From Lytechinus pictus (lineage: Eukaryota), in NCBI RefSeq assembly GCF_037042905.1, contig NC_087250.1, positions 9,612,001-9,676,000 on the forward strand: a stretch of DNA of 64,000 nt. Direction: 5' to 3'. The translations under genes and the position numbers were made by a program. Below are positions 1,339 to 62,658 of the stretch, piece after piece (the stretch's first letter is position 1; the number at the start of each line of letters is the position of its first letter). Under the pieces are notes generated by a model. It worked only from the letters and a program-made list of their open reading frames with translations. It had not been told where the DNA came from and did no database searches.

Positions 1339-1865
1339 AAATGTGAAAATCAACATTGAACACCCCGAGTTTGCTACAATACAGGGAGCATCTAATCTCT
1401 TATAAAGCAGCCATTAACTCATTGCTACAGCATATGATGTTCCTTGCAGTATGCTGTCAATTCTGAATGGTATTGCAATGTTTATATTTTACAATTTGCT
1501 GACAAACAATATAACAGCTCGCTTTCTTGGAGGCGTGACACTGACATTGGCATTTCGAATGCGGATTTTGATTGAAATCGTTGGAGGGTTTTTTTAATGG
1601 TAAAATGGATGAATACCTTTCTAAACATTTATTTTTGACCTAGATGGGCTTTGATGCCCCCACCTACTTATATTGTAGTGGATGACTGATCACTAAACAA
1701 TTAGTAGGAAATCGCTGCACAGGGTGCATTCCATTACAACAGATTTCTATTGATTTCTGAAAGCGAATATTCAAAATATGTCAAGTTCATTCGGACGTGC
1801 ATGTACATGTATGCATCTGAAATAGTGAATTTTGACATTTAGTTCAATAGCTGTGTGGTGTTTGC

Positions 1866-1950
1866 ATAATATGTCTGTAAAGCGCTTAGAGACGTCATTC
1901 CGATGTATTAAGCGCTATATAAATGTGGAATATTATTATTATTATTATTG
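1866..1950 (+). mobile_element. Isolated 3' tail of an L2-type SINE/LINE
   Basis: tctgtaaagcgcttagagacgtcattccgatgtattaagcgctatataaa..(tta)n is nearly identical to the SINE tail at 41457-41533. Confidence 0.75.
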
Positions 1951-1989
1951 CTTTAGAAGTAAGATGTGCAACAATTGAAGCGAACTGAA

Positions 1990-2260
1990 GTTGTAAAGCC
2001 ACTTTGGAAAATCACCTGGCGATGTGGTTTTCAAGATCGCTTTTTCGTCTCAAGCTACTCTGAATGTAGACGAGGACACGATCGTTCTTCAGAGCATGTG
2101 ACCCCACTAAGATAGTTCCCATAGCAACAAGACCACTTTACTTGAAGTGGTTTTTGGAAACCAGTTCAGGAGATGGTGATGCGGATGCGAGCAAAGCGAT
2201 CTTCTAAACTTGCTTTTAAAGGGAAACCAGTTCCTTTCAGTAAACTTTCTGGTCACTTAC
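1990..2260 (-). mobile_element. Diverged inverted copy of the 7090/44512 MITE family
   Basis: The reverse complement shares gcgatcttgaaaac.acatcgc.aggtg.ttttccaaa, cttgttgctatgg and gaagatcgctttgct. Confidence 0.7.
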
Positions 2261-2704
2261 GGGGCTTTGACAATCGCTTTTGCGATAGTTTGTGCGATCA
2301 TTTGGTCACAATATATGTTGCACACAATCGCAACGGCTGTAAGCAGTCGCATCACCAATTGTGAAAGGGGCTTTGGAAATGATTTCCCCTGCTATTCAGT
2401 CAAATATGACTAAGAAGTACCATCTGAGAGTTGTATGATACATGTATGTCTTTGAATATTTCATGCCTTCATGTACATATGTAGGCCTACATGTAGAATT
2501 TAGATACTCGCAACGCTGTTTAGAATTGTTATATCTACATGCAATCATAAAGAGGAACCCCCCCCCCCCCAGTACACAACACACCATGTACATACTTGAA
2601 AGAAAAAAAATTGTATTTGAAAAATAGGAAAAGAGAGATAAGAAGTCAAACAATACAAATGAAAATGTTCACACTAATAGATAGAATGAGGGACAAAGAA
2701 TGGG

Positions 2705-2950
2705 GCTGAAAGAGAGGGAGAGAGAGAGAGAGAGGGGGAGAGAGAGTGTGTAACATCACTGAGGCTAAAGCATGGGTGTCATCTCAAAAGTAGTGTATAC
2801 TGGGTCTTTCATTTGGGTTTATCAGTATCAGGGAAAGAGAGAGAGAGAGAGAGAGAGAAAGTGATAGAGGAAAAGAGATAAGAGACAATGTGAGAAAGAA
2901 ATTAAATACAGTTTGATAAAGGGGGGGGGGGGGGGTAGAGAGAGAGAGAG
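2705..2950. repeat. (GA)n and poly-G simple repeats
   Basis: Seen directly in the sequence. Confidence 0.85.
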
Positions 2951-3229
2951 CTTGAGAGTGCAAATAATACACTGACAGCATAAGGATAGCGAGAGTGTTT
3001 CATATGCGATTATCTTGTGGAGGATTTCAGTTCGGAAATAATGCCCGTGTTAAGTCTGGCAAGTGGTGGAAACGGCCCTTCACAATGGGTTGAGTAGGTA
3101 AATCTGTGCTGACTCTTGGAGGCGAATCCCATTGATCTGGAGAGAGCCCCCATTGTTCAAAGGTATGCCTTGGGGACAATGGTGTATGGGGGAATACAGA
3201 GGGGTTCTTGTTATTGTGAGTGGAGTCCT

Positions 3230-4310: not shown

Positions 4311-7089
4311 TGTGTTGGGGATTTTACAGACCTATGAATCAGTTGTATGATTTTCATCTCCACGTGACTCTGCCTATGAAGTCGAATCTGTTGGAGTACA
4401 GAAATCTTTTTGACTGAAGATAAAAATTTGACTTCAGTATGTACCTAACTATACGAAATAATTTTATGCACTAATGTAGCAATGCCCCTGCCTCATTTCA
4501 CAATCCACAAAAAGTTTTTTTTTCTTCAGTGGTAGGCCCTTTCCATGTACAAGTATGTCTGCCACAAGTTCCAGTGATCTGCAGTCGAATCGGTCTTCCA
4601 TAGAGAAAGGACAGACATGAATGTCCTGAGTAATGCTTTGGGGAAGTACTGATTCATGATTCATGAAAGTGCCCTGTGGTTGTGTAACCATCTTTTCTTT
4701 TCTGATAGGTGATTTTTCCATTACAGTGTTTGTGTTCTCTGGTAGCAAAAACTTCAGTACAACTTACTCATTTGCATTAAACAGTTCTTGATATATATGT
4801 GCATGTGGTGGTGAAATGTAGGTACATGTATTTGAGCTTGTGCATTTCTTTTCTTCTGGACAGAAAATACAAGATATTTTATTTTGTCTTTGCAAACATG
4901 ATGATTGCAAATAAATTTGTTTTCCAGTGGTATAATTACAATAGACATTTATGAACAGAACAGAACCAAGAAACAAATAAATTACATGTGCTCATTTATC
5001 AAGCAGATACAAAAAAAACTTCAAGCAGAAATTATGATTTGTGTGTGAATGCAGAATAAGAATGTCGAAAAGAATGCTTCCACTGCGGCCTGTTTTATCA
5101 TTTCGAGGCAAATGCTTCTATGACACGTACATGTACGGAAGGGGACGTCAAGTTTGGGTGCACAGATTTTCAACCCTTTAGGAGAGTGAGTCCACATATA
5201 TGCGCTCTTCAGTCTATAGAATTAGAAAACATGTTTTATGAAATCATTCAGTCTCCAACCGATTTAAAGAGAATTTTTGTGGTACGCCAATTTAACTGAT
5301 GATTGATGAAGAACAAGTGTATGTGTGTGTATGTGGGGGAGGGGGGAAGAGAACCACAAAAAAGATTATTGTTGTGGTCGAAATCGGTTCATCACCTTGC
5401 AATAATATTTTTTTCTGCTTTCCATTTGCATCATTCATTAAAAAGTCCCATTCATACAAGGCAATATTCATACTGAAAGCAAACCTGAACCTTGCACAAC
5501 ATGATGAAATGTCATTATGGTGTGAAAGGCTTGAATGAGAAATCTTCTTCAAAATAGTGAAATCAGATGAAGTCTACGAATCAAGGGAAATGATCAGGAA
5601 ATACAATTACAATGGCACTAGCGAATTTGTCACATGAATGTCCTAAGAGAGCCCTTGGAAATCCCTTTGGGCCTAATGTAAATTGTAATACATGTACAAC
5701 AACTTTGGCTAATCTGCCGTACTTTGGCAAAAGGAAGCAAGTTACAAAAGTATAATTTGTTGCAAATGAGCAATGTGTGTTTGTCATTTACATAGGTGTC
5801 AATGCAATTTTACAGTCATATTTTCTTCAATATCTTTTTTATAGAACAATCATTTCTTCTAATAAGTCAAATTTGACTGATGTGTCACTTGCTTCCTTTT
5901 GCCAAAGTTGGGCAGCAATAGTAATACAGTACATTATATGTATTTTTGTATTCCTCTTCTTGGTTGACTAAACAATGATTTTGAATAATCTGAATGGGGA
6001 TACATGCAGAGGGTCAAATCATCATTCATAAGACTTAAAGATGCGAACTGTGGTTAAGGTACATGTACTGAATCCATGAAGCCATTCAAGACAAAGTAAC
6101 CAGCTTTTCTGATCTGATTTGGCTCGATAAATTTGATGCACTGCCCTAAAAAGAGACATGAGAACCCTTGAAAAAAGTGTGAGAAAAAAATCCATGCATA
6201 TCCAAGCATTTACTGGGCCATTTTTATTTTGTTATTTGGAGGGAAAAGGTGGGAAGCCCCCCCCAACCCATTCAAGTGATGAACAATTTTTTTCTACATA
6301 TTTCTGAAATGCCATCAACAATCAGAAATATAATATTATATAATTCTGTAGTCAACAGGTTGATATATTTTGATTAGCCTACTTATAATCCAACTGATTA
6401 ATTTGTATTCAACCATGCTTTATGTTTTAGGTTGCCAGTTTACCACTCAAGACTTGTAGCACTGATTTTTCCCCGATGGGTTGGGTTGGCACTGATAGTC
6501 ACTGTCGCCTCCCCAGGAGGATCAATCTTCATCAGCCATTCTTTTTTAAAAGTTATCATGCCATTTCTATTTAGTACATCATTTTGATTAGAACAATCAT
6601 GTGAACAAATGAAATAAAATCTATAAACTGATTAGGGCTTAGTTACGTGCACCCCCCCCCCCCTCCCCTTAGAGAAGAAGATACCCCCAAATATGAAATT
6701 AGCAGCCAATTTTAGGGTTGATCGCCCTTACCTTTTATCCTTTTTTATTCATCTAATTTTCAATGAGGAGGATGTAAATTATATCCTAAAGCCACCTGTG
6801 ATGCCCCCTTATAGTCGCAGAGGAATCCATCCTTTGACGATCGTTGGAAATGTCAACTAGGCGTAAGGCTGATGGAGACATGGCTTGGGTGTACACTGTA
6901 TTATCTCTTTCAACCTTGTTTCATGCTCGGTTAAATCTCAGACAATAGACCAGCATTCCCTGTCTTCTCGAACAATATTTCACCCTCTATCTAAGTCCCA
7001 CAATGCATGGTGCATTTAGTGAGTCAGTCTATGGAGATTCTCAGGAATGCACTTCAATGTACATGACTATGTACTTTTTTATTCTAAAA

Positions 7090-7552: not shown

Positions 7553-7584
7553 AAAGTTGAAATATACACTTCTCTCATTTTTAC

Positions 7585-8165: not shown

Positions 8166-9056
8166 GAATTCCATACTTGTCAATAGCTCCCGACTCGGAC
8201 AGGGTTCAATTAGCTTTAATACTATCATTTTCCTGGGATACATGTACATTTGTTTACATTAATTTAAAGAGTTTCAACCCAAATGGATGTTATTTGATCA
8301 ACATTTGCTTGACTTGTGTAAAATTAAATGCTCGGACAAATGGTTGGATAAAGGAAAGCTCACTTGGATATAAAGGTATGTTGTTTAAACCTCTTATTTT
8401 AGGTAGTAATGTCAGTTTATAGAAATTTCTGTATGGCTTGTGCCTTGTTTCCATGTTGTGACCGCCAAAACCTTACAGATCATTTCTGCATATTTTACTA
8501 ATAAATCAAAATAAACAAAAAACTATTTTTCAAAATGATCAGACTAAATTGTTCATGATTAAAGCACTGAATTAAGCAGTAATTAGACTTTCTGTGAATT
8601 CATATATGAAAAATATATTTTGCCATTGCTATGTTAGACCATACTTGATCATGATGTTTAGTTCTGATTATTCTGTTAATTAAAGTGAGAAATGAATGAA
8701 TATTGCTCTTAGTTGTCAACTTAGATACCAGTAGCTCTGTGAATAATTATCAAAAGCTCACAGAAAACAAATTAAGGAATTCATAGAATTTAATTGCAAT
8801 ATAATATTGTTTTTAGGTCAAATATTTTGAATTGTGAAAAATGCAGGTAAAGCCAGGAAAATCAATTCAGAACCCAATTAAAAAAAATATCATGAATAAG
8901 TAAAGACCTGCTTGCAGTGTTTGGCATACATGATTTCCAACTTTTATTTGGAAACTTTTTACAATATTTTACAACTTTTTTAACGCACATATAAAAGGTG
9001 TTTTGATAATTATCACTTTGTGTTTCTCTGTGCTCTGCAGTTGACACACTTATTAA

Positions 9057-9650
9057 AAGCCAAGTCCACCCCAGAAAAACTTCGATTTGAATTAATTGAG
9101 AAAAATCCAACACGCATAGCACTGAAATTTCATCAAAATCGGATGTAAAATAAGAAAGTTATAACATTTTAAAGTTTTGATTATTTTTCACAAAACAGTT
9201 ATATGCACAACTAAGTGACATGCAAATGAGAGAGTCAATGATATCCCTCACTCATTATTACTTTTCTATTCAATATTTTAATTTTTTGCATAGTTGACAA
9301 TAAGAGCAAACTTCTCTGTACAGTGTACCATAAACTATTACATTTGTAACTCTACATGTTCATGGAAAAATAAAACTTTGTTTCACATGACATTGATGAG
9401 AAAATTAGAATATTTCATATTTGTAATAAAATACAAAAGAAATAGTGAGTGGCATCATCGGTCCCTTCATTCCCACACCGACCAAGATGTGCTTATACAT
9501 GTAATTGTTTTGTGAAATCAAGCAAAAGTTAAACATTACATTTTTGGAACTTTCTTTTTACATCCAATTCTGATGAAATATTCAGTGTTAAGTTTGTTGG
9601 ATTGTTCTCTTTTTGTTCAAATCAACTTCTTGTTGCGGTGGACTTGCCCT
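9057..9650. mobile_element. TTAA-flanked MITE with long TIRs (Kolobok-like)
   Basis: TTAA|aagccaagtccacc...ggtggacttgccct|TTAA. The internal gaaatttcatcaaaatcggat is shared with the 60650 element. Confidence 0.85.
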
Positions 9651-10234
9651 TTAAGAAATAAGTATTTGCAGTTGTATTGAGAGATAATTGGTTTCTATGA
9701 TTCAGTGCTTGAAATATTTCAAATAAAACCAAAGGTTCTTCATGTGTGCTTATCTCACTTGAAAAGACCAAAGCTGTCCCAAACTGAATGGGATTCAGAA
9801 ATGCTTTATAAAGACATTTCGTTCACAAGGTCATTTTTAAGCTGATCCGAAAAAGTAAATACAAATTGCAAATTTCATCCGCTACGTCATTAGATTTGTT
9901 CATTTACCTATAACGGCTTTTAAGAAGCCCCTTTTCATGTAGTCATACAATGCATATAAGATAAAGGGTCTGTTCCCATAAAATACAAACATCAATCGAA
10001 AATATTTCAATATCTTTTATTTAGTTTTTTTAAAGTGAATGTTTACAATTATTTGATAGTAGATCATATATGTTTAGAATGATTTTTAGTACATTTCTAT
10101 AATAAATGCCACAGACAAAACAATATGTTATGCTTGTTATGTAATGGAAATGGTATTATAGGAATGATACATGTATGTACATGTATGCATAAGGAAACAA
10201 AAAATCAAAGGAAATGCCTTGAAAGAGGTGAACG

Positions 10235-10704: not shown

Positions 10705-11370
10705 ACATAAAATCATAGTGTATGTTTGATTCTAAATCTACAGAGGACAGCCCTCCTTTAATAGAATATGCCAGTAGGAACAGGCCGTCTTCCTCACTAA
10801 AGGATATTTGAGAAGATAATAAAAGATCGAGGTGCTACTTGTTGGCTAGGCCCGCCCGGCCAAAGTACGATGGCCGCCCTTTGGCCGTCATTGTTTGCTT
10901 TCGATAACGCCACACTGACACCATGCATGTACTATCTATAGAAACTTCTCACTTGTGGAAATTTAATTATAAGCAAGATGAATGCAATACTGCCATACTG
11001 GAATATTTGGTCTTTGATTATACAGTATATGCACGGTGACGGTACAGATACCAATATACTTTGTCCCTTAAAACGTATTTGAATGCCAGTTAACAATATG
11101 AAATACGTTCAAACAGAATTAAAAACAATGACCACCAAAGTTAAGTGTTTTAAAAAGTGCCAAATTATTTTGTTAGGGGAAAAAGGTGTAATTTCTGAGA
11201 ATTCGACCACACAAACATGGTATTTCAGCAAGATGTTGGATCGTTCTCCAAGCAACAATGGTACATAGTCCCACATGTGCTTATCTCTGTTGGGGATCTC
11301 CAGAGTGGTTGCATTTTCAGCTTAGATAAGTTCACTGTGGCAAATCTACATGTAGATCTACTATGACAGA

Positions 11371-12681: not shown

Positions 12682-13250
12682 TCATATCTTCAGCTGATGT
12701 ATATATGCAGGTTGGTGGTTCTACACTATGTGTATTGGTCAGATACACTTCTTACAGTGGGGTACCCCAAGGGTCTAATCTGGGTCCTAATTATTTATGG
12801 ACAAAAGGCAAATTTATTGTCACTAATAATAATAATAATATACATGTAGGGTATTTGTATTGCGCACATATCCACCTTGTTAGGTGCTCAAGGCGCTCCT
12901 ATATTACCCGGCTAAGCTAGGCGTTCATAGCGCACACAGCTTTTAAAGCAATTACTTCCTACCGGTACCCACTAACACTCTTATTTCACATCTTCAGCTG
13001 ATGTGCGGGTTGAGGGTTTACAGATTTGTACTAGTCAGATATGATGGTCACATTAGGGCTTCCCCCAAGGATCTTATCTGGGTCCTCTTGTTTCTGTTCA
13101 CATCTACATTCTTCTTTCACATCTTCTGATGTATGTGCGGGTTGAAGGTTTACAGATTTTGATCAATCAGATACATGTAATAAATGGTGGTTACATACAT
13201 GTAAGGGCTTCCCCAAGGGTCTTATTTTGGTCTTCTTGTTTCTCATGAAG
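12682..13250 (+). pseudogene. Three tandem decayed copies of a CR1/L2 reverse transcriptase motif segment (GVPQGSxLGPLLF)
   Basis: Copy 1 reads SGVPQGSNLGP. Copies 2 (12986) and 3 (13116) share the flanking DNA and ccccaagg.tctta..tgg.tc.tcttgtttct. Confidence 0.7.
12823..12972 (-). mobile_element. 5'-truncated SINE (3' half)
   Basis: Near-identical to 40234-40381. Confidence 0.9.
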
Positions 13251-16383: not shown

Positions 16384-17184
16384 TTAAAGTATTTATGCAA
16401 CAGATATGACCCAGATCCATATTGTATACATGCCTAGAGGCTGATCCTAGAAACAATATCTTCAATTTATTGTACATCGTACATGTAGTCAATGTAATTG
16501 TTTCTAGAAAAATGTTACAGTCCGTTGCTGTGATTTGTGTTCGGGATCTCAGGTTCCAGTACACTTCTTTTGCGTATTACAATTGATTATTCATATTCAC
16601 ACCTCTGTATCATTAGCCGACCCATCCAATCTCCTTGTTTTTATTCCAAGATTTAAAACAAAACCCCCCCCCAAAAAAAAAAAAATAACTAAAGAATTGA
16701 AAATGATCAACTGGGTGAGATCCCCTGAATGTGTGCCCAACCCAGAGCCTCCCTACATGGTTTCATGAACAATTCTTTGAAAAATAGAGAAACGCAACCT
16801 TGTCATTTTATACAAAAGCGCTTTATGAATTGTTATGAAATTCCTTGACACGGTGCATTGGTTATTCCATAATACACCCATGGATGAACCAGTGCTTAGG
16901 AATGGCAAAGCGTATTAATAGCCATATTGTGAAGGATCCCATGTGACCTATTGCTGTTTAGAAGTATGATTTGGGTCTGTTCATACTTTTTAGTGAATCG
17001 TAATAATAACGATAATAATCATAGGTCCAAATAGGGCACACATGACTACTTCAGACCCCCATTCAAAATCACTGCTCATAAAAAATCATTAAAAAATCAA
17101 TCCCTCGATTGATTTCATTTTAAATCACTGACATTAATCATGAGCTTGTGTTAATTTAGTACCGTACTTATAATTGATATTGAC

Positions 17185-17665
17185 AATTTTGGGCAATCAT
17201 TTGAATTAAAACAATCATTGCATTCTGGCAAGTAAATACTACGCAATCATTATTGCAATTTGAAGTCATTTGATGTTGTCAATCATTGTTTTTCATTTCA
17301 GTTTGGAATCCCTGTATTGGCAATCATTGTGTTTTAAAGTCATTTGATGTTGGCAATCATTGTTTTCAATTCCAATTTGGAATCCCTGTATTGGCAATCA
17401 TTGTGTTTTGTACATGTAGGATTTGTTTGCCAAATATTGGCAATCATTGCATGTTTTCACCCATTTGATTTGGAAATCAAATTGCCAGTCATTTTCAAAT
17501 ATTTGCAATCATGAGTAATCTTTTGGGCAACCATTTGAATCAATACTGTCATTGATTTTGGCAGTCATAATGTAGGCAAAAAGTTGATACAGGCACAGGC
17601 AATGATTTCATTTAGGCAATCATTTCACAAATGCAATCATCACATTTTCATGTATGCCATCATTA
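17185..17665. repeat. Degenerate array of ggcaatcatt motifs
   Basis: More than 15 (g)caatcat motifs, including a duplication of about 56 bp at 17302/17377. Confidence 0.8.
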
Positions 17666-43700: not shown

Positions 43701-46700
43701 CAGGATAGTTTTTCATGAAAGGTGTCAGATTCAACAAATTTTTCTCTGGAAATGAATTGTGCTGTGCTTGCTCGCTTTGTGATGCATACTAAAGTTGGTT
43801 ATATTTTTTTGGTTGTTGTTTTAGGCCCCGCCCCCTCCTCCACCACCACCCCCAGCCGACGGGTCAGGTAGACCAAATTCAACTCAAAGTAAGTATCACT
43901 CTAGTTATGTAATTATCTACTAAATTGTACTATTTTGTCTTTTCGTATTTGTTAATTTCTTTGATCTTTGTTTCTTTTTTTTCTTCTTTTTTTTTGAGGC
44001 TCTAAATCTATTTTTTTCCTGTTTTTCTTTTCTTTGATTTTTGAGGGTTTGTTCGTACATGTAATTGCTTTTGTCCTTTCCTTTAACCTTCCGCCCTTCA
44101 ATCTCGTCTCCATTTCTAATATTAATACTAATAATGTTATATTTTTACCCAGGGTAGCCACTTCAGTTCTGAAAACTGTTCTACCAGCTGGCCCTGCTTA
44201 ACATCATAATGTTTTTCCTTCTTTATATCTCTTTATTTTGTGTTTACTGTGGATTTGTTTCTGTTTCATTCTTTATTTATTGCCCTTAGAATGCTTTGAA
44301 ATAAGTTGGCTTACATGTATATATAAACAGTGAGAGTAAATAATAGAACTTCAGATATATTTCATTCTTGGTTTCGTAGAGATTAGTTTATACATGAACT
44401 CAGAAGTAGTTATTTATCTGTGTTACCATTCTTTTTTACTTACTGTTTTTTTTTCTTACTATGTTTCTTCAAGTACCCAAGGGTTGTAATCAGCACTTGA
44501 AATGCAACATTGACACCGTTTTCTTTATACTTTCTAAAACTAGTTTACTGGAAATCGGTTCAGGAAACCGGTTTGGAAGATCGCTTTGCTAGCGTTCCCA
44601 TTTGATCAGCCGCAAGTGTTTTTTGAAACCACTTCACATAATGTGGCTTTGTTGCTATGAGAACGCTGTCAGTGGGGGTGACATGTTTTGCGCAAAATTT
44701 GAAATTGCAGCGTGGACATTCTACACACAGTGTGTGGAGGAGCGCGCTTTAAATGTGCGAAGATTGCTTCCGAAAAACGGTTGTGTCCTCACGCTAAAAC
44801 AAGTTTAACAAGGGAAAGCAATCTTGAAAACTACATTGGGAGGTGGTTTTTTGAACTGGTTTGGAAGATCACTTCCAATACTGCTTGGACCGTTCTCATT
44901 ACAAGTTAAACTAGTTTCCACTAAACTGGTTTTAGGGCGGTAATGAGAACGGGGTCATGATAATCAGCCTTTATTGGTTGTTCTTTTCTTTTGATTGTTT
45001 CTTAATGATTTATTATCTTTCAGAAGCAAATGGTATGGACTTTGCCACGCAGCTCCAAAACACATTAAAGAACAAACAGTTAAGACCATCAAAGACACAG
45101 GACAGAGGTGAGTGGTACCAGCATGAACCAACTCTAAAGTTAAATAAATTTAGTTGCGGTAAATACTGATTTCAAGAGAAAGCCTGTAAAACCAAGGTTA
45201 ATTGTCACTACACCAATGTAAATCTAAATCTGATGCAGTTATATCAAATGGACTTTGTGAAAAACGATCACACTGAATGAATTCCTGATTTAACTTTAAG
45301 TGATCAGTTTAATTTACATTTTATTAGCATGTGGGCAACTCAAAAAAAAATAATCCCTTTTTCCTTCGTCCCACCTCCATTTCACTCGATTCTTCCTGTA
45401 CTTGTGTGATGTGCTCAGGTCCTCATAATTTCTAAGCATTACAATTTTTCAAGTGAACTAGAAAACACAGACAATTTATTCCAGTTAAGTACCACATGTA
45501 GACGAACAGATGTACAATTTTTTGGGGGGAATTTCCCATTGTCAACTGATATCATTTTAAAGTGTACAAGTAATTGAAATGATTTCAATACATTTACCCC
45601 AGCGACAACATGGCGAACATGGATAATCAGAATAATTTTATTACATTTAAGCTGGCGGTTTCTTGGAGTATTTTGATGTCTACACCATACATGCCATACA
45701 ATGAACTCTTTGATATCTCTTAAATTATCCTAATCATCAGATTTTTTAACCAAGAACACTAATCCAATCCTCACCCTAATACTTCATCCCCAGAAAAATT
45801 ATGACAGAAAGATAATTGTTGAAATAGTTTTCACATTACTAATTTATCATCATAACGGTTTTTATATTAAAGCTAAGTTCAAGTTCTGGTATAGAAACTT
45901 AATTTTGTTAGGAAATAGTTGGAAGCAATCTTAAAGTATTTGCCGTATGCCAGAATGCTTATTTAGAACAACAAAGTTTAATTAAAATAATTCAGGCTTG
46001 CTAGAGCGGGGGTTTCAGATTCCAGTGACCCGGGTTCAATTCCCACTTGGTGCGCTAGTGCCCTTTGGTAAGGCATTCATCCCCATTAGTAGGTCCCTCT
46101 GAGAGGACCTTAAGCCGTCGATTCTCTGGTTGCTTGCTTACAAGCATTCATGCTTTCTTAGCAATCAGATACAAAAATCACCACTATAACCATATTACTA
46201 CATGCTTTTCCTGGTGCGTAGCTAATACAGGAAACATCGTGTGGGACCACATCGTGATAGAAAAGCATTTTTCAGTAATTTTTCTGATCTTCTATTGCTT
46301 ATTATTACTCTGTAATTATTCATTGTCCTGAAAGATCATTTCATAAATTTCATTTATAGTTTTTATAATTGAATGGAAGTTTTGTTCTGTGACTGTGAAC
46401 ACAAAATTTTCTGTTGTTACCAGTACCAGAGTTTACCTTTAAATATTTTATCATCTGTCTGCAGCATTGTCATCTAGCAGTCAGTACGACACCCTCCAGG
46501 AAGAGCTCAAGAATCGCGTCAGCAACGGAGGAAAGGCAAAGAATTACCGCATTCCAAGGCGAAGTATCAGCGATGTCTCCCTGACGTACGATTCTGGTCG
46601 GGACGATGTGAAGAGATGGCTTGAATCCAAAGGTTTCAGTCCCATGTAAGTTGTCTGGAATGATGGCTGGTAGAAAGAGAAATACAGAGGGTAGTAGTGA

Positions 46701-49700
46701 CAGAGTGTGAGAAAGCTAGTTGATTTAAATGAATTAAGTATTTTTGGAAATGCCCCTACCCCTACCAACTCCCTTCCTATCTTCCCATAAAGATAATATA
46801 GAAAAACATCAGATGTTAGCAGTCTAGACTCTAAATTCTGATATTGGACACCGATCACCGATACCATGTCTTTGCTTTATACCATTCCATTCTAATGTAC
46901 ACCTTATCACATAGGACTGTGCACAGTCTTCAAATTCTGAATGGTGCCCAGTTGTTTAGTCTAATCAAAGAATTGTGTATGTTCATGCCATCATCTCCAT
47001 TATTTGGTAAGATTCTGGAAAGAGTCTATTCTTTGAGATTGATATAATTTCTCTTGTTCATACCATCCCATTCTTATGTACACCTTATCACAAAGGACTG
47101 TGCACAGTCTTGGAATCTTGAATGGTGCCCAGTTGTTTAATCCAAGCAAAGAAGTGTGTATATTTATGCCATCACCTCCATTTTTTTTTAGATTCTGGAA
47201 AGAGTCTAATCTTGGAGATTGATATAATTTCTTGTGCTTATTATGTATCATTCTTATGTACACCTTATATGATATGAATGTGCACAGTCTTGGCATCTTG
47301 AATGCTGCCAAGTTGTTTAGTCTAAGCAAAGAAGTGTGCATGTTCATGCCATGATCTCCTTTATTTCTTAAGATTCTGGATGGAGTCTTATAGATTAGAT
47401 TGATATCATTTCTCTGGCTTATACTGTCCCATTCTTATGTACACGTTATCGTATAGGACTGTGCACAGTCTTGGAATCTTGAATGGTGCCCAGTTGTTCA
47501 GCCTTACCAAGGAAGAACTGCAGCAGGTTTGTCACGACGATGGCTCCAGGGTATACTCCCAGCTCATGATCCAGAAAGCTGCTCTACAGGTAACTTTCCA
47601 GACCAGACTTTAAGGGGGTTGTTGCACATAGTTGTAGTTGATTGCGAAATTATGTTGCAATCTATTGCATAATTGTGATGTAATTGATTGCATAATTATG
47701 GCGCAAGTAATTGCAAAATAATGATGTAATTGATTGCGAAATTATGTTGCAATCTATTGCATAATTATATTGCAATTGATTGCAAAATTATGATGTAATT
47801 GATTGCGAAACTATGATGCAAGTTTTTGCAAAATTATGTAATTTATTGCAAAATTGTAGTGCGATTGATTGCATTATTATGATGTAATTGATTTCAAAAT
47901 TGTGCTGCAATTGATTGCATAATAACATGACAATCGATTGCATATTTATTTTGCAATTGATTGCAAAAATATGTTGCACTTTTGTGTAAGCTTGTTTTAT
48001 TTGGTATAATGCACCTTACATGTTTAAAAGTGTCTTCACTTTGTTCATCATTCATCACTCACAATGTTGATCATCACTTAGTGACTTAGTGTAATAAAGA
48101 ATCAATAAAAGGGAACCGACTAGAAAAATATGGAAATAATGATGGTAGAAATAAAATCATAATAGATAATGAAAAGCAACAATAAAGAAGAAATTAAAAA
48201 TGAAAATGAATGAAGAAATAATTGGATGAATGAACATATGAATAACTAAGTAAATCCATAAATAAATGAATACATAAATAATGCATAGATAAATAAATAA
48301 AAAAATAAGTGAATAAGAAATAAAAATAAATAAGTTTATGAAATAAATGAATAGAAGTATTTGAAAGAATATTATATAGAAACATGAAGCACATGAAGTA
48401 AAACAATAAATCAGGTATTAAATAATAAAATGAAATAAAAAAAAATCATAATTGCCAAAATCTAAGGGCTTATGAACCAGTGCCACACCTTTTACCCTTC
48501 CAATTTCTGGCTTGCTACACACAATGTATGGAATGCCTAATGTCCCAGCAAAATTTGCTCAGAAATTTACTCCATCATCCATCCATCATGATAATTTAAC
48601 TCAATATATATTTTGCTGTTCAATGACAAAAGGAAGGAATTCTTTTCTTTTCACAATGGACTTTTTCAATCTGCAGAGTTGCTTCCTTTTGTCATTGGAC
48701 TGCATTATGGATGTTAGGGCATGCTGCGTTATGTGTGCATGTACATTTTGTTTTTCGGTCAGTCCTATATGAATATGTTAATTCTGTGCTCCCCAAAGTT
48801 GTTAATTGCACTAAATAATCGAAAACATTAATTCCGTTTATAGATATTAATTTTTCGGGCATACAAAAAAATTGGGGTTTCAGTGTTATGTAATGTCATT
48901 TCATCACATACCCTCATATTATTTTATATACTCTTCATTGAATTCATATATACACATAGATTCTAGTTTGAGGAGTTAATCATGAAACATGAGGGGAACG
49001 ATTTGAATTCAATTAGATATTGCTTTGGGATTCAGAAAATGAAATAGCTTTTGACCAATACTCTGGTAATTGGTTGATAGAGAGGCTGACATGTCAGTGG
49101 TTTACAGCTTAACACAGATTGCAAAACATGAAAAGTTCAGAAAGGTACAAGTTTGCACACAATTTTCTGTTACAAAATGCAACACAGAAAGACTATTTTG
49201 AAAGGGGTATATACATGTAAATCTGGCAGATGTATGCCTTATATTCATAATCATTGTCATTTTCTGTATTAATTTTTTTTTTATTCCAATTGAATTAATA
49301 TGTAGACCAATACAATACTGCAACTAGTTCGTAGATTCCTGGTGTAATTGTGGATTTTCTGTAATTTTGTTGCAAAGTGTTTTTTACTTTTAACACATTT
49401 AACACACACGTACATACATGTATACCCCTAATACATATCAGCCGGTATTTATAATTAATAGTTGCACATGCTTTTCCCCCATGTGCCTACGGTGGTCCTT
49501 TTAAAATTATGATATATGTTCAATATTCCATCCACTAATATTGTAGTAACCCTTTCATGATGTATGGTATCCCTGTGTGTATTTGTTTTGTCCATGTATA
49601 TTATAAGGGGGATGTGTGATAATTTGATATTAGCCTTTTAGTTTTTAAATAATCCCTAATATATATATTTTTTTCAAATTTTAAAGAAATTGATGTTTTG

Positions 49701-50647: not shown

Positions 50648-53600
50648 TCCACAGTAGTTATTCACAATGTAAAGAGGGGAGTACGGGATGATGTATTCAA
50701 AATATCCCTTTCACCAATTAAATGCACTTCGATATGAAAAAAAATTGTCAAAATTTGGATAATTTTTCCCAATTCATTTCAAATAAATATTTTCTTTCCA
50801 TTTCACAAATTAATACATTTTAAAAAATATATTCAATGGTCCCATTCCATAAAGAGCTGTTATTACATCAAATGCACAGTTTTTGTATAACAAGTTTACT
50901 ATCAGCCAATTCTATTGATTGATTTTAGTAGCTTTAAACTGTTATTGCACATTTGTCATGATAAAAAGTTTTGTGAAACGTGCCCCAGATAAATTAATTT
51001 GAGCAGAAAACAGTTAAACATGGTCTTATTTAAGGTTACATGTCTTCATTCTATTTTATCAAAACCTGATTGGAAATGTGGAATTACACTGTATAGAAAC
51101 TTGATAGTACTTTCCTTCAAATATTAATGAACTTTGACAAGAAATTAATGCAAATTAGTCATTCTGTAGCTAAAGCATTTTTCTTTCCACTTTTTAAAGC
51201 ATGATTAGGCATATAGATTTGCTATTTGTTGCTAAGGAAAAACATTTGTATTTTTGAGTTCTATAGAAAATAGAACTCGTCTACATGTGTTACAAATCAA
51301 AAGATGCTAACTTTTTTTCTTCAAGGAAATCAGCATTTTGTATTCTTCATCTCGCTTTTCATTTCTCCTTTTCTAAAAAAACATAATAAATGCTATCATA
51401 ATAATATTGCTAATAATTGAACATTTTCTCTACTATATTGAAAAAGCAATGGTCCTTCTGCATCAGAGTTAGGTCAGATGTCACATTTCAAATCAATAGA
51501 ATTCTTTTTGTAGTTATAGTTAAACTTTTTTGTATTTCACTGATTTCTTCTAAAACAAATTTAGTCTGTTCCCATTCACTCACAATAGATTCTCAGAATA
51601 TTTTCTCTGTTGTATAGTTATTTACTTCTTTAAAACAAATTGCAAATTGTCTTCCCCGGTCAATAATTGATCGGGAAAGATTGCTCAAAATATTTATTTC
51701 CCAACATGTTGGGCTCCTACGCTTTGCTCCTCGTATACTTCAGTTTTCATCATATTACTTTTCATCGTATTTTGTCGTATGTTGTGTCTCAGTGTATTCC
51801 ATTTGATGTAAACTCCACCTAACCAAGAAAATGCATGATAAATGTTTGTGTGCCATTTCATTTTACCCAAAATACTAGATGTATATATCAAGTTAATTAC
51901 ATGCAATTCCATGGTCTTCCATATATAATCTTGTTATTCTCCTAGATAAATTTTTTCCTTCATCTTCCACATTTTCAGTTGTATTTAGTGTACATGTACC
52001 CAACTAACAACTATCTTATATCATTTTATCTTCATTATTCTTTTTCCTCATTAACATGCATTCAGAATCAGAATTTTGTACTTTTCTTTGAACTTGCATT
52101 ACAGGATATTTGGGTCCATCTTTTTTTTAATAACCTGCTTTTAGTGACAAAACCTCTTATCTCACAAATATGGAATAAATGAAGAATGAGAAACATGAAT
52201 GCCATGAGGCTTTATGAAATAATAGAGTCTTGCTGTGACACATTATTTATTATCAGTTTTCAGCAAAGATTTCATGGGTTCACAAATATAAGTTTATTTT
52301 AATGTACCAGATCTAGATCTACACGTACATGTATGATAATATGATGAAAAATTAACCTTGATTTGAAAAACCTCATGAAATCATTTGCTGCAACTACTTT
52401 CTTTTTCACCTTTAAAATAAAGAAGTAAGCGTTCAAAATTTGAGATAAGAGGTTGCAGGCCTATTTTGCAGAAAGAATTGCACCATTCGCAGCTTGAATA
52501 AACACATTGATATCTAAGCAATGAGAAACCTACGACTGGCATATTATTTATTTGGTTGCATTTAAGTGCAAGACTTCCTGCAGTGTGCCTTATGTCACTG
52601 TATATAATGTGCTGGGATATCAAGGGATGTCACTGTGGTCTTGCACATAGCAACAAGTGCAGGCACACATTTCACGGAGCACCTACTCAGTTACTTTAAC
52701 TGGTAGATTCACTCTGGGCCAATCATACGTTAGCATTTCAATAGCTTATAACAGCTGCTAGTGAAAAGGCACTGAAAAAATGTTTCATAAAATGCTCCCA
52801 ATATCTCTGTATGATTTATTCTAAATTGGTATCCCTGCATTTCAGTGGTATGTAAAGGTTTGATATATATATAGTGATTGTACAGAAATGGGTAACTGAC
52901 ACTTGTTGCGATGCAAATAAACAAAGTGGTTCATATTATTTCCATTTCATACATATGCCCATCTTCTATCAATACATTTGGCATTATCTTATATGGCACA
53001 ATATACCATATAAGATGATAATGAAAAAGTGCACGTTATTACTTACTTAGGTTGATTTTAGGCATATATCATATAGTGAAATTTGTATACTACCCATTTT
53101 ATTACTTTACTTTTTAATCTGGCATTACGTAAGGAAAGCACTTTGGCATTTCATCTATTTTATCATTCTACCGTTATGACCGCTGTATTGCACCATTTTC
53201 ATCTATTGCCTGTGCAGTATTGATATATATATATATTATATGTACATGTATATCATATATGAATGCGATCAATTTTTGTCTCTTCTTTTTACAGAAAAGA
53301 TTCCAAATCATATTTGCAATACTGCGAAAATATCTTATCTTAATGTCTCTCCTAAAACTCTACTTTTTACTGCACCATCCTCATTCACCCTTCATTGTTA
53401 CCGGTATTGACAGAAGATGGTTTTTTATTTATGAATTACAGGATTTGTAAGGTATATCATTTTCATCGGCTTTCACCTTATACCATATAAGCCTATAGAT
53501 GTAGGGAATGCTGTATCACACAAGGCTATTGACATTATGCAATTATCTTATTACTTCTTATAGAGGGGCCCCCAGATGTCCCATGGTGAAGTAACCTGGA

Positions 53601-56600: not shown

Positions 56601-56960
56601 AGCATGATTATGTTGATTTTGTAAATGAATTTATTTTTTGATGAGAGAGAGACAGAATGACAGAGGTTATATCATGAGCGAGGGTATATATTTGCCCATT
56701 CATATTTACATGTAAATGAGGAGTTTTCAAATACAAATGACACACATTTTTCTTCATGTATTACACAGATTTATTTCCTACTGTTGCTTTACTTCACACG
56801 TAATACTATAACTTTTGTCTTACAAGGTTTATTCAATGTTTCTTATTATTTTCATACCCATTTTATTCACTTTAGACACATTACCCACATTGCAATCAAT
56901 CCTTTTTTTTTCATTTCAGATACCTTAAGAACAGACCAACAATTTTGAAAAGACAATCAG

Positions 56961-57261
56961 GGCTCCATAACACAGATTAATGATTAAGATTAATGATTAA
57001 TCACTTAATTGAAAGAACAATTCTGATTGGTTCCTAGTCAGTCTACGGCGCAACATGCACATGCAAGGATGATTTTGATAGGCCATTTCATTTAGTGATT
57101 AATCACTAACCTTTGTGTTACGGAGCCCAGGGTCACATAACCCAAAGCGTAGCGATTAATCGTATGCTTGATTTTTATGATTGATCGTACATTGTAGCCA
57201 ATGCAATCAATTGTGAATAAAATGTTCTATGATTGATTGCTAAGCTGTGTGTTACGGGCCC
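56961..57261. mobile_element. Two abutting CAG-flanked MITEs
   Basis: CAG|ggctccataacac...gtgttacggagcc|CAG|ggtcacataac...gttacgggccc|CAG. Confidence 0.88.
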
Positions 57262-59173
57262 CAGATCTCATTTCTTTATACTGCTTTTTATGATGCATTC
57301 CCTTGCGATGCTATTTTGGCAATATATCTAAATTAACACTTCACTTATTAGAATTAACCTGATTCTGGTATAACTTGGCCTTTAAATCCAAATGAATGGG
57401 ATTGACATATGATATAGGTCTGGGTATCACAATTGGGAAAGAAATCTTAATGGTCCCTACCAGAAAACTTCCCGGTCTGTAAAATTAGTTATGGAACTTT
57501 GGACGGGCATGGACTTACAATGAAGTCCATGGTTTGGATGGCAGATTTTTCTTTCTTTTGCATATTTCTACTTCGGAAATGCATATTTTGACAAATTATG
57601 ACACATACTGTCATCATGCAATCTGTGTGATGTGATTGCACTTTTGCTTGCTTTATACCAGGAAAACAACTCAATTGTGTGATAATATATTAATGTTTTG
57701 GAGTTAAGGTCATATGAACACACACCCGCACACACACCCCCACACACATTGACACTTCTGTCCAAATATGTCTTTGATGTATACAAATACTGAACACATT
57801 GTTTAAACATCTCATAGAAATGTCTGTATTTTACATTAGATTAGGTGGTCATTTCTTAAAAGCCAAACGTGAAGACAGCTTAGATAGCGCATTTTGTGGT
57901 AAATGTCATATATTTTAGACAATGTAAAAGTTAGCACTAGCTGTACAATGGTCCTTTTCAACTAAGTGCAAACGGCAAATTTAGAAATAATTCTTTTTTA
58001 TTCATAACTTAATGTTAATGTAACGCCTGTACCCTAAACTGATTTTCATATATGTAAGAAGACATGTATTTTTTATATACCTGTTCACTCTCTGTATTTC
58101 CATTGATTATCATTCATATTTTATTATTTATCTTCTTTGAAATTATTTGTTCAATGTGAACGGGAATACTAGAATAAGTAGTTCATTTTTATATTGAAAT
58201 TGTTTTCCAGTAATATACCAATGATGCCCCCCCCCCCCCTTATCTGAATCGTAATGATATGCCAATACAGAAGTAAATAAATGGTGATAGATTTATACAA
58301 AAACATGACATGTGTAGATAACACATAAGGCCCAATCTTAAGAAATACATTTGTTGTCTTTGTAATACGGGAAATGAGTTTGAATTAAACAAGAAAGAGA
58401 CAAATTATATTTTATTCAATTCAGGTTTCTATATTTTATTTCAATTATACCAATGGTAATTGCATTTTTGTAATAAGATATTAAAGTTATATATTCCCAT
58501 AAATGATATTGCTGAAAAGAGAAGAATACTTATTCGGAATGAAGATATATCTGTATATAGAACTATAGATATTCATTATTAAAGGGAGAAATCATGAAAG
58601 TTGAATTTTCATAGCGATTATTGACATATGAACTTTATTTTCTTCTTGAATAATTTCATTGTTATATGATAACTACAGGAATTTCATTTGAATATATATA
58701 TGTTTTATTGAATAGATACGCGTTTATTAATTTCCCTTTTCCTTATTTTTGTAAATGATCACACTAATGCCTTTGCTATAACATTTTGAAAAGTCACCAT
58801 ATGTATATGTATTCTCATAAAGATTATATCAGATTCTACAGTTATATTCTAATGCAGCCATTTTGGAAAGAATTTCTGAAATGTCAGGCTTTCACTCGCC
58901 TACTCATTGAATGGAATGTAAATGTATAGTACTGTGAAAGATAATATTCTTGTAGAATTTCTATGTTATCATTTTACATGTATTTCGATGTGCCTTTAAA
59001 ATTGATAATACATTACGTCAAAGAATAAAGAGGACGATTTTGTTAGCCAATTCTTACACATGAGTGTCATCTCTCTCAGTATGATCTATGGAAAACAAAC
59101 AACCTCGCCAAAATGCATGTCTTCTTTCGTATCAGTGACAAACATTCATTGACCTGTCCTTGGATGAGTTCAG

Positions 59174-59323
59174 GGGCCTGTTTCATAAATAGTTACAACT
59201 GTTGTAACAATTATGGCAACTACCATGGCAACAGGGCTCAGCAGCCAATCAAAATCAAGATTACCGTGGTAGTTGTCATAATGGCAAAGTAACAACAGTT
59301 GTAATTCTTTGTGAAACGGGCCC
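59174..59323. mobile_element. CWG-flanked MITE (20280 family)
   Basis: gggcctgtttcataaatagttacaactgttg / aacagttgtaattctttgtgaaacgggccc. Confidence 0.85.
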
Positions 59324-60649
59324 CTGATCTTTGTAGCCAAAGAATTATGACCCTTTTGGCTACCCATAGTTTGTATTGATTGTGCCATTCACAGTCATTT
59401 GTGAGAATGGGCCCTGGATATTCACGAATTCACATTAAGGATAACATGGTGAAATGATGAGTTACTGATCGTTATCCGCCTTGTTTTTCGTTTACTCAGT
59501 CTGACTATTACAGGACGTTTTGCTTTATCGTGTTCCATAGAAGAAGTAATGTAACCCTCTCATGTCGCTGGCGTAAATGTATTCTATCATTTCTGTACTT
59601 ATACGAGGTAAAACGTCTATTATTTGTTTTCTACAATCTTCTCAAAAGTTAGTATCGTACATTGTAATTATTATACCATTTTTGCGGGCAGATTAAATTG
59701 TATTATTACACTCGTACTCATCTCAAATGTGTGTCTGACTTATCAGTTCCAAATGTGTTCTTCACGCCATTTTTATTTTTGTTATTATTTTATTTATTTC
59801 TTATTGGGGGGGGGGGCATTTCTCTGTAAACAGACGTACTTTTACTATGTTTTTATAGTGTGTGAGATGTGTGCGTTTTGCACGAATTTATAGTAAGGTT
59901 TAGGATGGAGGAGCGCGGACAAACATGTGCGTTAGCGGGTGTATTAAAGTAAGTTTGCAATGAGCTACTTCTGGGGACATATTCTTACATTTTACCGACC
60001 AACCGGGGACGTCCACGGTCGAGGTCGCGATGTAGATCAATTCCTCATTTCAAATCGTTCCAAATGGTAAAAGCATGGTGTGTAAAAAGTATCCCTATCG
60101 ACCAAATAACTCAAGTTGTGTGTGTTCGGTCGGTTTAGAAATTGCCCCCCGGTGTTTTTCCCCTTTTTTTTGGGGGGGGGGGGGTGCGAACTATGCTCAC
60201 GTATGTCCGAAATTGAGATCGGTTAAGTGTGTGTGAGACCACTTTTGCGATTAATAAGTAAGTTATTGATTGTCAAATTACAAGAAGTCTGGTTGTGTGT
60301 GTGGGTGGGTGCGTGAGGGTGAGTGTGTTTATATGGTCAGGATAAGGAAGGGCAGGGAGATATGTGCGTGGAATGTCAATTGAGTGCGGAAGTTCAAATA
60401 TTAGGTCGGTGCATGGGGAAAGAAGGAAGTGGGAGGGAGAGAGTTGTACAAATAGATATAATTGATATAACGGGAGAAAGATATAAAAACGGAGGACAGA
60501 TACACAAATGAATAGTTATACGAATATAATGAGAAAAAAATGACAAGAATGTTGTTTGTGAGCACGAACTACCTGGAGTAGATTTGAATAAAATCCCAAC
60601 GAATTTAGATTAAAATCCTTCAACTTTTGATGCATGTATAAACTTTTAA

Positions 60650-61249
60650 AGATATGGTCCGGGCTGAAAATATTTATATCTTAATAAATAGAGTAAAATT
60701 CACAGAGCAAAATGCTGAATATTTCATCAAAATCGGATCACAAGTAACAAAGTTATTGAATTTAAAGTTTGTCAATATTTTGTGTAAACAGTTTATGCAC
60801 ATCATCCTGAATATTTATTAGGTGGACTGATGATGTCACATCCCCACTTTCCCATTTCTCATGTTATTACATGAAATCATAAATGTTTCATTGTTCATAC
60901 ATCTGTAAATGATGTGTCTCCATTACGATGTAATAGGTTGCGGCAATAAATAACTAACGCATTTAATCACTTGTCAATCCAGTTTGTTTAGTTCTTTGTA
61001 GAAAAAATGTTGAATAAACCTAATTTCATACAACAAAATACAAAAGAACAAGTGGGGATATGACATCATCAGCCCACCTAATGAATATTCATAAAGACAT
61101 GCCTAGAACTGTTTCAACGGAAAAATGCAAATCTGTAATTCAATAACTTTGTTATTTGGTATCCGATTTTGATCAAATTTTCAGCATTTTGCTCTGTGAA
61201 TTTCACTCTATTTATTGAGATATAAATATTTCCAGCCTGGACCATCCCT
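60650..61249. mobile_element. TTAA-flanked, largely palindromic MITE (Kolobok-like)
   Basis: TIRs of about 110 bp, plus an inner inverted pair at 60810-60850 / 61050-61090. Confidence 0.92.
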
Positions 61250-61571
61250 TTAAAATTTGACCCTAAATCTAATATCCGTCTGGTCACTATATAACTTCAG
61301 TCTCTCAGGATCAAATCCATGAATCGCTTGATTTCGGTATTCATATACAAAATGCAATACAAGAAAGTTTTATTGACGGCGAATACAATAAAGAGTACAA
61401 CTAGAAGCTTATTTTATTTACAAATAGAATTTTTTTTTTATTCACACGGAAAAATAAAGCAATTATACAACAAGTAGATTGCAAATGATGAGGGCATATT
61501 GTCATTTTTTTTTCATTTTTGTCATCAACGTGAACAAAGACCACTAATTATTAGTGAAGAGGATGTAAGAC

Positions 61572-61714
61572 CTGGGTCCCTTCTAAGAAGTTGTGATTGA
61601 TCCAATCAACCTCAACTACCCGTTATATATATATATATATATATATATATGCGTCGAAAATTTGGAATTCAAAATAAACTGTTGGAACAAAGTACAATGC
61701 ATTACCACTTTGCC

Positions 61715-61789
<75 letters not shown>

Positions 61790-62658
61790 CACAAATCCAC
61801 AATTTAAGTTTAAAAATGTCATGAAAACACAATTATTATAATTATATTGCCTGAAAAAATATCTTCTCCCAAATAATTTGATACCATCTCCGTGAGGTAT
61901 GTGTTCACGCTTGGATGATTGCATTTTTACCGTGATGTTAAGTTCGATTTGCGCCAAAATAAGGCATGGCTGCAACGAATGAATCATTTAATTTGAGAAT
62001 TGATACTTAACAGTGTTTATCAAACAATTATATTAAAATGTGTTTTTCCCATGGATTATAATGCAACCCTTGTAGGATTGTAACATCATTAATTGCAGTA
62101 ATGCTTTACTTTGGCGAAAAACAAAAGTTACATCGCTGCAAAGAATACCTACTGATTATCCAAGCGTGAAGACAATATGATATCAAAGTATTCGGATAAG
62201 ATGCTTTTTGCGGCCATTAATAATAATTGCATGTTCATGACATGCTTAAATTGGGTATTTGTGAGGTGTCATGTTTTCTTTTCTTTTTTCCTTGCACGGT
62301 ATAGGCCAGGGCGAACATCCTGACTTTTTTTTTTATTAACTCGAGCCCTAGCAACTGACCGGTGATGTTTTTGACATTATTTCATTGTTTCTTTGTTTTC
62401 ATCGCACTAAGGTCAGTGTTGTCGTCGTTAATAGGTGTGACGTCACCCCGCCTATTATGGAAATCCATCAATGTCACAATTTGTCCTCCAGAAAATATGC
62501 AAAATGTCGTTGTGTAAACAAAGAGGATGCGAAGAATGCACCCGAAAAAAATGAATATACATGTACGTCATATTTTCAAAACGTTTGAAAAAAAACCATA
62601 CTTTTGTGATTGCTGGTTGATCGGATCAATCGCAACTCTTTGTAAGACGGGACCCTAG
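61572..62658. mobile_element. Family-A MITE termini enclosing about 1 kb of unrelated DNA, including (TA)n and a nested inverted repeat
   Basis: Left end gggtccc..gttgtgattgatccaatcaa, right end ttgatcggatcaatcgcaactctttgtaagacgggaccc. Confidence 0.7.

Follow-up and report, generated by a model that had tools for sequence, protein, structure and literature searches.

Why does a single eight-letter word, TACATGTA, occur 55 times in one gene region of the sea urchin Lytechinus pictus? The window, by which we mean the whole stretch of DNA analysed here, comprises 64 kb (contig NC_087250.1, positions 9,612,001 to 9,676,000, forward strand) and includes a complete EPS8-like gene. Where a clean comparison between repeat copies exists, the alignments mostly point one way: the octamer behaves as a 6-bp insertion, CATGTA, at a TA dinucleotide. 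We consider it probable (roughly 0.6) that the octamers are, as a sequence-only reading of the window had proposed, excision footprints of elements of the Tc1/mariner type (IS630/Tc1/mariner), which target TA and would have ends CA...TG or CATG.

Abundance of the octamer

A word count of the window gives exactly 55 copies of TACATGTA, where the sequence-only reading had claimed about 55 against a chance level of 2-3. They make up 52 sites, 49 single and three doubled (TACATGTACATGTA at 33334, 33750 and 37189, all three named in that reading as iterated forms). Among 100 dinucleotide-preserving shuffles the mean count was 1.95 (standard deviation 1.27, maximum 6) and none of the 100 reached 55; the excess in the window is about 20 times chance. 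Markov models fitted to the raw window predict 1.9, 3.1 and 3.9 copies at orders 1-3, and 9.7 and 23.3 at orders 4-5. The rise at the two highest orders is circular, because the octamers themselves feed the model. When CATGTA was cut out of every copy and the model was refitted to this emptied sequence, orders 2-5 predicted 2.2-3.1 copies. The disappearance of the enrichment under a higher-order background, which the sequence-only reading had named as a refutation, thus did not occur.

Among all 8-mers of the window TACATGTA ranks fourth, after T8, (AT)4 and (TA)4, and is the top non-simple 8-mer; 55 of the 83 ACATGT hexamers fall within it. Words made from the identical four dinucleotide steps occur only 4-21 times each, so that the excess does not extend to alternating pyrimidine-purine sequence at large. 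Over 25 bases, the flanks of the 55 octamers are mutually unrelated, which shows that the octamer is not carried by a repeat family. The word TACCGGTA occurs four times against 0.30 expected (13-fold), and is given little weight since two of the four lie within two copies of one short interspersed nuclear element (SINE).

Insertion at TA dinucleotides

Paralogue comparisons within the window are few (the searches gave eight alignments, then one alignment). At 12841 the tail of a SINE copy reads ...AATATACATGTAGGG and its 93%-identical partner ...AATATAGGG, a clean change of TA to TACATGTA. At 28560 one end of a miniature inverted-repeat transposable element (MITE) reads ACT-TACATGTA-AAT, and both of the other comparable ends read ACT-TA-AAT. 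At 33178 a repeat unit is six bases longer than the adjoining unit. All three insertions had been singled out beforehand (the first as 12841 against 40251), and the alignments agree with them. At 13196 and 32763 the paralogues are more diverged, and each alignment has a 6-bp gap; the paralogue of 13196 has TT and not TA.

The sequence-only reading had taken 13172 and 13196 together as similar cases; 13196 can be kept, with its 6-bp gap and in spite of the TT, and 13172, with an 11-bp gap, cannot. Nor could we confirm that the surrounding 13.1-13.5 kb is a copy of a reverse transcriptase, as it had been called, since none of its four open reading frames (ORFs) of at least 75 aa has a Pfam match.

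Outside the window, a eukaryotic metagenome contig of 63% GC (L021:1490-1745) has three tandem units of about 89 bp, of which two read CACG-TACATGTACATGTA-GAGG and the third CACG-TA-GAGG, a clean 12-bp gain at TA. TA thus lies on both sides of the extra bases, at a former TA, at 12841, 28560, 33178 and in this contig. Among the window comparisons no single octamer is common to both paralogues, and the empty paralogues contain no CATGTA for slippage to copy.

The two repeat families named above can be described further. The SINE is tRNA-derived, of very high copy number and with an (AAT)n tail; its copies in the window are 12825-12976, 40234-40506, 22621-22762, 26450-26582 and 34968-35084, and they form the deepest pile-up of contigs from both organisms aligned to the window. 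The MITE family (23228-23640, 27305-27432 and 28009-28590) has terminal inverted repeats (TIRs) of about 30-50 bp that start GGGGGTGTTTCACAAAG, with the octamer in one end.

Target-site context

The 52 empty sites were rebuilt and their flanks compared with the remaining 4,948 TA dinucleotides of the window. When both flanks are pooled symmetrically, A occupies position -3 in 53 of 104 (p = 0.006), Y position -2 in 70 of 104 (p = 0.006) and R position -1 in 71 of 104 (p = 0.002). The insertion consensus of Tc1 is given as CAYATATRTG / AYATATRT in PMC9635669. A score for likeness to AYA-TA-TRT, with a maximum of six positions, was chosen before testing. By this score the mean is 3.17 of 6 for the 52 octamer sites, compared with 2.45 for the remaining TA sites (Mann-Whitney p = 3.9e-5); the flanks of control words (TACA, TGTA, CATG, TACATA and TATGTA) score 2.34-2.74. 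The top flank triplets are ATA, ATG and ACA, both in the window and in the metagenome contigs described below. ATA and ACA are enriched alongside ATG, and the flank signal therefore goes beyond ATG, the triplet in phase with the hexamer. A target context like AYATATRT is found in the window and is replicated in low-GC metagenome contigs.

Age and independent contigs

Contigs of four sequencing runs were aligned to window positions 25601-45600. Those of run X10, from another study, span 11 octamers without a 6-letter gap, and the octamers are therefore not an assembly artefact. Those of run X5, from a related organism, are about 7-11% diverged from the window.

One-mismatch variants of TACATGTA number 64 in the window against 50-56 expected, so that about 8-14 are surplus, compared with 55 perfect copies. 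If decay is neutral, our arithmetic would put the mean age of a single burst at about 2-3.5% divergence, and the onset of a steady process at about 4-7.5% divergence ago. Marked TA sites would amount to about 1% of those in the window, most of them dating from the last few percent of sequence divergence. There is weak evidence that the octamer-forming process straddles the species split.

Other genomes

Metagenome contigs were searched with the doubled form, which gave at least 119 loci (369 kb); this selection biases towards genomes rich in the octamer. The figures in this section refer to the loci listed. The 119 contain 112 more octamer sites, a density of 0.30 per kb. Among them, 80 loci of low GC content (230 kb in all) have 90 single octamers against 9-14 expected from models on emptied sequences, and the flanks of these octamers show the same bias to A-Y-R before TA (2.97 against 2.35, p = 1.8e-5). 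The octamers come from several groups of data sets and lie in unrelated sequence contexts. The loci are eukaryotic, with CARD, CUB, Npa1, kinase, kinesin and patatin domains. The coral Stylophora pistillata supplies the nearest named protein for one of them (L069, at 69% identity), and the sponge Halichondria panicea those for another (L038, at 50-57% identity, with 54-57% in all rows but one); the octamer is dispersed in coral-like, sponge-like and GC-rich eukaryote contigs alike. A 24-base core of the SINE had no match among the metagenome contigs. An all-against-all comparison of the 119 loci was swamped by low-complexity sequence, and after filtering left only one pair, of the same state.

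One-mismatch variants number 286 in these genomes against 187 expected, which is what neutral decay of unselected scars of mixed ages would show. One contig (L037) contains a true array, (CATGTA)6.

In a 10.7-kb metazoan contig with a CARD-domain exon (L030), a different word, TAGGCCTA, occurs nine times where 0.06-0.27 would be expected; its contexts are dispersed, and in one tract, at 5237-5265, copies are piled up. It looks like a second scar-like word in another animal, of the build TA + XY + complement + TA. TAGGCCTA and TACATGTA overlap by one TA (TAGGCCTACATGTA or its reverse complement) both at 2482-2495 of the window and in an unrelated contig (L080:1111-1124); these may be either adjoining scars or coincidence.

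Proposed mechanism

Transposon excision footprints are textbook knowledge, and Tc1-type ends begin CA. The proposed element would insert at TA and duplicate it. On exit the transposase would cut a few bases into the element at both ends on the non-transferred strand, TA plus the terminal element bases would stay on the flanking DNA as 3' overhangs, and end-joining would seal TA-CA to TG-TA, giving TA-CATG-TA and a net gain of 6 bp at the former TA. With CATG termini and a 4-base stagger the overhangs would be self-complementary, which would explain the uniformity of the scar, one invariant word. Alternatively, an element with CA...TG ends and a 2-base stagger would leave the same TACATGTA if both CA overhangs were kept. 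Re-insertion at a scar's own TA, followed by excision, would produce TACATGTACATGTA; the three doubled forms compare with about 0.5-1 expected from random re-use of TA (our arithmetic, from 52 sites and 5,055 TA). The element, its termini, its stagger and its rate are all things we infer, as is the 'massive insert-and-excise activity' of the sequence-only reading; the other idea put forward there, a fixed motif stamped into the genome without any element, has found no support of its own.

This scheme follows published behaviour. The footprint of Tc1/mariner elements is described as the first or last 2-4 element bases between two TAs, TACAGTA/TACTGTA for Sleeping Beauty, and arises when the non-transferred strand is cut inside the element and the resulting 3' overhangs are joined by non-homologous end joining (PMC6943129).

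Weighing the alternatives

Several results weigh against excision footprints of Tc1/mariner-type elements. The element itself was not seen: Pfam finds a transposase domain in none of 122 ORFs of at least 75 aa in the window and in none of 103 ORFs (66 + 37) of related contigs, and TIR scans for TA-CA...TG-TA in the window and for TA-CATG...CATG-TA in the 369 kb of contigs returned only chance pairs of the octamers themselves and one palindromic contig end. By-products of excision are not enriched in the window (TACATA/TATGTA 73 against 79 expected, TACAGTA/TACTGTA 13 against 12). Three of the eight comparable window sites are not clean 6-bp cases: the gap is 11 bp at 13172 and 7 bp at 52326, and the paralogue of 33334 already has ACATGTACAT. 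Among the pieces listed, contigs of run X5 cover four octamer sites, and their gap totals, if these count letters, mean that the 6 bp cannot be absent at 36881 and 37553 and could be absent at 37189 and 40601; some octamers may thus predate the species split and yet remain perfect. One word across urchin, coral-like, sponge-like and GC-rich eukaryotes calls for either an element type of very wide distribution or some more general cause. Lastly, documented footprints are less uniform, those of Sleeping Beauty being diverse in HeLa cells (PMC6943129), and in rice a perfect footprint was left in 8 of 94 excisions, with deletions and filler common (PMC4423477).

The sequence-only reading had likewise recognised no element in the window. 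With no transposase domain and no convincing TIR pair we concur, and the absence from 64 kb is uninformative by itself, because even thousands of copies per genome would, by our estimate, predict none. A spectrum of related scars from imprecise repair was not seen either: TACATGTA is the sole enriched form in word counts, which are blind to mixed scars. This weakens the footprint reading without overturning it, and excision events could outnumber the octamers counted. Two candidates raised by the TIR scans were rejected. The pair 17411/19203 is false, in that the match does not extend, and the perfect 52-bp hairpin in L079 belongs to a long perfect palindrome at the contig end (2170-2305), which more probably reflects a chimera of assembly or amplification than a mobile element.

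That neither a transposase nor TIRs were found, whether in the window or among the 369 kb of contigs, would also suit a TA-targeting mobile element or nuclease system other than classical Tc1/mariner, either of another DDE superfamily or a companion of an RNA-guided nuclease, that adds CATG between duplicated TAs by its own chemistry. Such a system could account for a scar far more uniform than the documented Tc1/mariner or plant footprints, for the recurrence of TACATGTA in very distant eukaryotes and for the differently cored TAGGCCTA that dominates one contig. We nevertheless hold it to be rather unlikely, given that the target context fits the published Tc1 consensus, that the footprint rule published for Tc1/mariner is a duplicated TA enclosing a few terminal bases, and that a few thousand copies per genome would, on the estimate above, leave none in 64 kb.

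The octamer could instead be a functional palindromic site, for instance of a dimeric DNA-binding protein, kept by selection. The 55 perfect copies do far exceed the one-mismatch excess in the window, two sites are perhaps common to a relative about 9% diverged, the word is a palindrome, and it is reported as a promoter motif in Phytophthora (PMC11134190). At one copy per 1.2 kb, spread evenly across introns, intergenic DNA, SINE tails and MITE ends, the octamer is however too dense and unselective for this; the copies originate as 6-bp insertions at TA and not by substitution, their flank bias is of the transposon target type, decayed copies are abundant in other genomes, and the doubled forms and the parallel case of TAGGCCTA would go unaccounted for. 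Selection is accordingly an improbable explanation.

Replication slippage or microsatellite-like growth of the CATGTA hexamer, or a general excess of alternating pyrimidine-purine sequence, is more improbable still. It could draw on the three doubled forms, the (CATGTA)6 array, the perfect alternation of pyrimidine and purine in TACATGTA, and ATG before the octamer in 8 of 98 flanks, in phase with the hexamer. Yet 49 of the 52 sites amount to only 1.33 units, without the tandem growth of a hexanucleotide microsatellite; the empty TA paralogues offer no template, other words of the same steps occur 4-21 times against 55, and the out-of-phase ATA and ACA flanks are enriched equally with ATG.

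That the octamers are an artefact of assembly, polishing or library preparation is scarcely credible: a technical step could make a fixed short palindrome at a fixed dinucleotide, but contigs of three runs from another study align to 11 octamers of the window without any 6-letter gap, and the same pattern appears in many unrelated metagenome assemblies.

Sites in the window and gene context

The sites are given below by coordinates in the window, with no strand assigned and the method in brackets.

1804..1811, octamer (word count)
2439..2446, octamer (word count)
2488..2495, octamer, its first TA in common with TAGGCCTA at 2482 (TAGGCCTACATGTA) (word count)
4823..4830, octamer in the minus-strand ORF 4767-4991, which has a weak PSI-domain match; possible coding exception
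5128..5135, octamer (word count)
5689..5696, octamer (word count)
6060..6067, octamer (word count)
8239..8246, octamer (word count)
9496..9503, octamer (word count)
10168..10175, octamer, 2 bp before the site at 10178 (word count, flank comparison)
10178..10185, octamer, 2 bp after the site at 10168 (word count, flank comparison)
11347..11354, octamer (word count)
12841..12848, octamer in the tail of a SINE copy; plain TA in the paralogous copy 40234-40385 (paralogue alignment)
13172..13179, octamer; 11-bp gap in paralogue, comparison not clean (paralogue alignment)
13196..13203, octamer; 6-bp gap in paralogue, TT in place of TA (paralogue alignment)
16480..16487, octamer (word count)
17411..17418, octamer (word count, TIR extension test)
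19203..19210, octamer (word count, TIR extension test)
20211..20218, octamer in an intron of the EPS8-like gene (word count, tblastn exon map)
21423..21430, octamer in an intron (word count, tblastn exon map)
23316..23323, octamer (word count)
23452..23459, octamer (word count)
25639..25646, octamer (word count)
25731..25738, octamer (word count)
28560..28567, octamer in a MITE end, two other ends being ACT-TA-AAT; also in the contig of an independent run
32297..32304, octamer, 18 bp past TACCGGTA (32271-32278) (word count)
32713..32720, octamer (word count)
32763..32770, octamer; 74%-identical paralogue 6 bp shorter here (paralogue alignment)
33178..33185, octamer; adjoining repeat unit without the 6 bp (repeat-unit alignment)
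33334..33347, doubled form TACATGTACATGTA; ACATGTACAT also in the paralogue 33067-33192 (word count, paralogue alignment)
33750..33763, doubled form TACATGTACATGTA (word count)
33880..33887, octamer (word count)
35611..35618, octamer forming the splice donor of one exon in the EPS8-like gene (CAAG/GTACATGTA)
35830..35837, octamer, also in the contig of an independent run (word count, contig alignment)
36275..36282, octamer in low-copy intron DNA, also in the contig of an independent run (word count, contig alignment)
36377..36384, octamer, also in the contig of an independent run (word count, contig alignment)
36881..36888, octamer; gap letters in the relative's contig (X5) too few for absence of the 6 bp (contig gap total)
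37189..37202, doubled form TACATGTACATGTA; the relative's contig could be 6 bp short here (word count, contig gap total)
37553..37560, octamer; a single deleted letter in the relative's contig, the 6 bp not absent (contig gap total)
40601..40608, octamer; the relative's contig could be 6 bp short here (contig gap total)
43116..43123, octamer (word count)
43461..43468, octamer, also in the contig of an independent run (word count, contig alignment)
44056..44063, octamer (word count)
44312..44319, octamer, also in the contig of an independent run (word count, contig alignment)
49212..49219, octamer (word count)
49415..49422, octamer (word count)
51991..51998, octamer (word count)
52326..52333, octamer; 7-bp gap in a 69%-identical paralogue, comparison not clean (paralogue alignment)
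53243..53250, octamer (word count)
56707..56714, octamer (word count)
58975..58982, octamer (word count)
62558..62565, octamer (word count)

The EPS8-like gene is complete, with about 18 coding exons between 19722 and 53617, plus strand (tblastn). Its exons are 94-100% identical to an NCBI protein of Lytechinus pictus, save two short ambiguous segments (71-74%), which places the window in that species or an extremely close one, and RNA-like contigs from three runs join the exons 38981-39205 and 41651-41905. The sequence-only reading had stated that no octamer lies in a coding exon. This holds for the 3,003 bp of mapped EPS8-like coding sequence, which contain none of the 55; with 2.6 expected the absence is not significant, and the site at 4823 is a possible exception. 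That site lies in a minus-strand ORF of 75 aa (4767-4991) with a cysteine pattern and a match to PSI (plexin repeat) at E = 4e-4, below the Pfam cut-off; the octamer encodes one of the cysteine codons, and the ORF may be an exon of a neighbouring gene.

The site at 35611 begins 1-2 bases past the end of an exon and forms its 5' splice site, GTACATGTA (35609-35618). The older donor would read GTAGGA if the 6 bp were inserted, and the scar would then lie within a working splice donor.

The window also has tandem arrays at 3181-4309 (period 40-44 bp) and 47586-48039 (period 23 bp), and a 361-bp duplication in 46860-47515 with repeated tblastn matches to the C-terminal part of the EPS8-like protein.

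Implications

If the octamers are excision footprints, one tentative picture, which we doubt more than we believe, is a candidate family of very active TA-targeting cut-and-paste elements that visited about 1 in 100 TA sites in this urchin within the last few percent of divergence, with CATG ends, a 4-base stagger and the same scar from every excision. The gain of CATGTA would then be among the commonest germline mutations, at about 1/4-1/2, per TA site, of the base substitution rate per base. Given the matching scar in coral-like, sponge-like and protist-like DNA, elements of this type would have to be widespread in marine eukaryotes or move horizontally among them. The scar words TACATGTA and TAGGCCTA would offer a countable, alignment-free record of past transposon traffic that could be used across phyla. 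Cut-and-paste transposons are usually tallied by their resident copies, which the visits recorded by such scars would far outnumber.

Excision would likewise rank among the main sources of small insertions in this model echinoderm, for which breeding and transgenesis by means of a Tc1/mariner vector are now in use, and an endogenous family that is still active would matter for cross-mobilisation and for the stability of insertions. It would also pose a mechanistic question, namely why repair should be so uniform here when footprints are mixed in plants and human cells.

Comparison with known systems

Minos offers one comparison. Its footprint is said to have been reported by Arca and colleagues in 1997 as 6 bp, made up of the TA duplication and four terminal bases, so that a 4-base stagger plus TA would give the same gain of 6 bp as the urchin scar. 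The ends of Minos are not known to be CATG, and its overhangs would be mismatched and yield two alternative scars, whereas overhangs reading CATG would anneal completely and leave just one. Minos is active in the genus Lytechinus (PMC11361634).

The footprints of Sleeping Beauty and other Tc1/mariner elements resemble TACATGTA in that two TAs flank a few bases, and the canonical Sleeping Beauty footprint is described as predominant in several animal cell types (PMC6943129). The inner part of the urchin scar is however 4 bp (CATG), a net gain of 6 bp compared with 5 bp for Sleeping Beauty, and the urchin shows one form only, which recurs about once in every 1.2 kb of germline sequence. The rebuilt empty sites resemble the Tc1 target consensus in the symmetric series A, Y, R at positions -3, -2, -1; they differ from it in that -1 is A or G and not mainly A, and the outer C/G contribute little.

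In a search with paywalled journals outside its scope, we found no paper on TACATGTA as a transposon scar or as an over-represented echinoderm word, and no printed case of one stereotyped footprint as the top non-simple 8-mer of an animal gene region, recurring across phyla. The closest genome-wide parallel is rice, where the repair of excision sites is likewise described as a source of small indels throughout the genome (PMC4423477; PMC5023962). There the scars are mixed and were recognised from species alignment, whereas the urchin region has one stereotyped word that tops the table of non-simple 8-mers.

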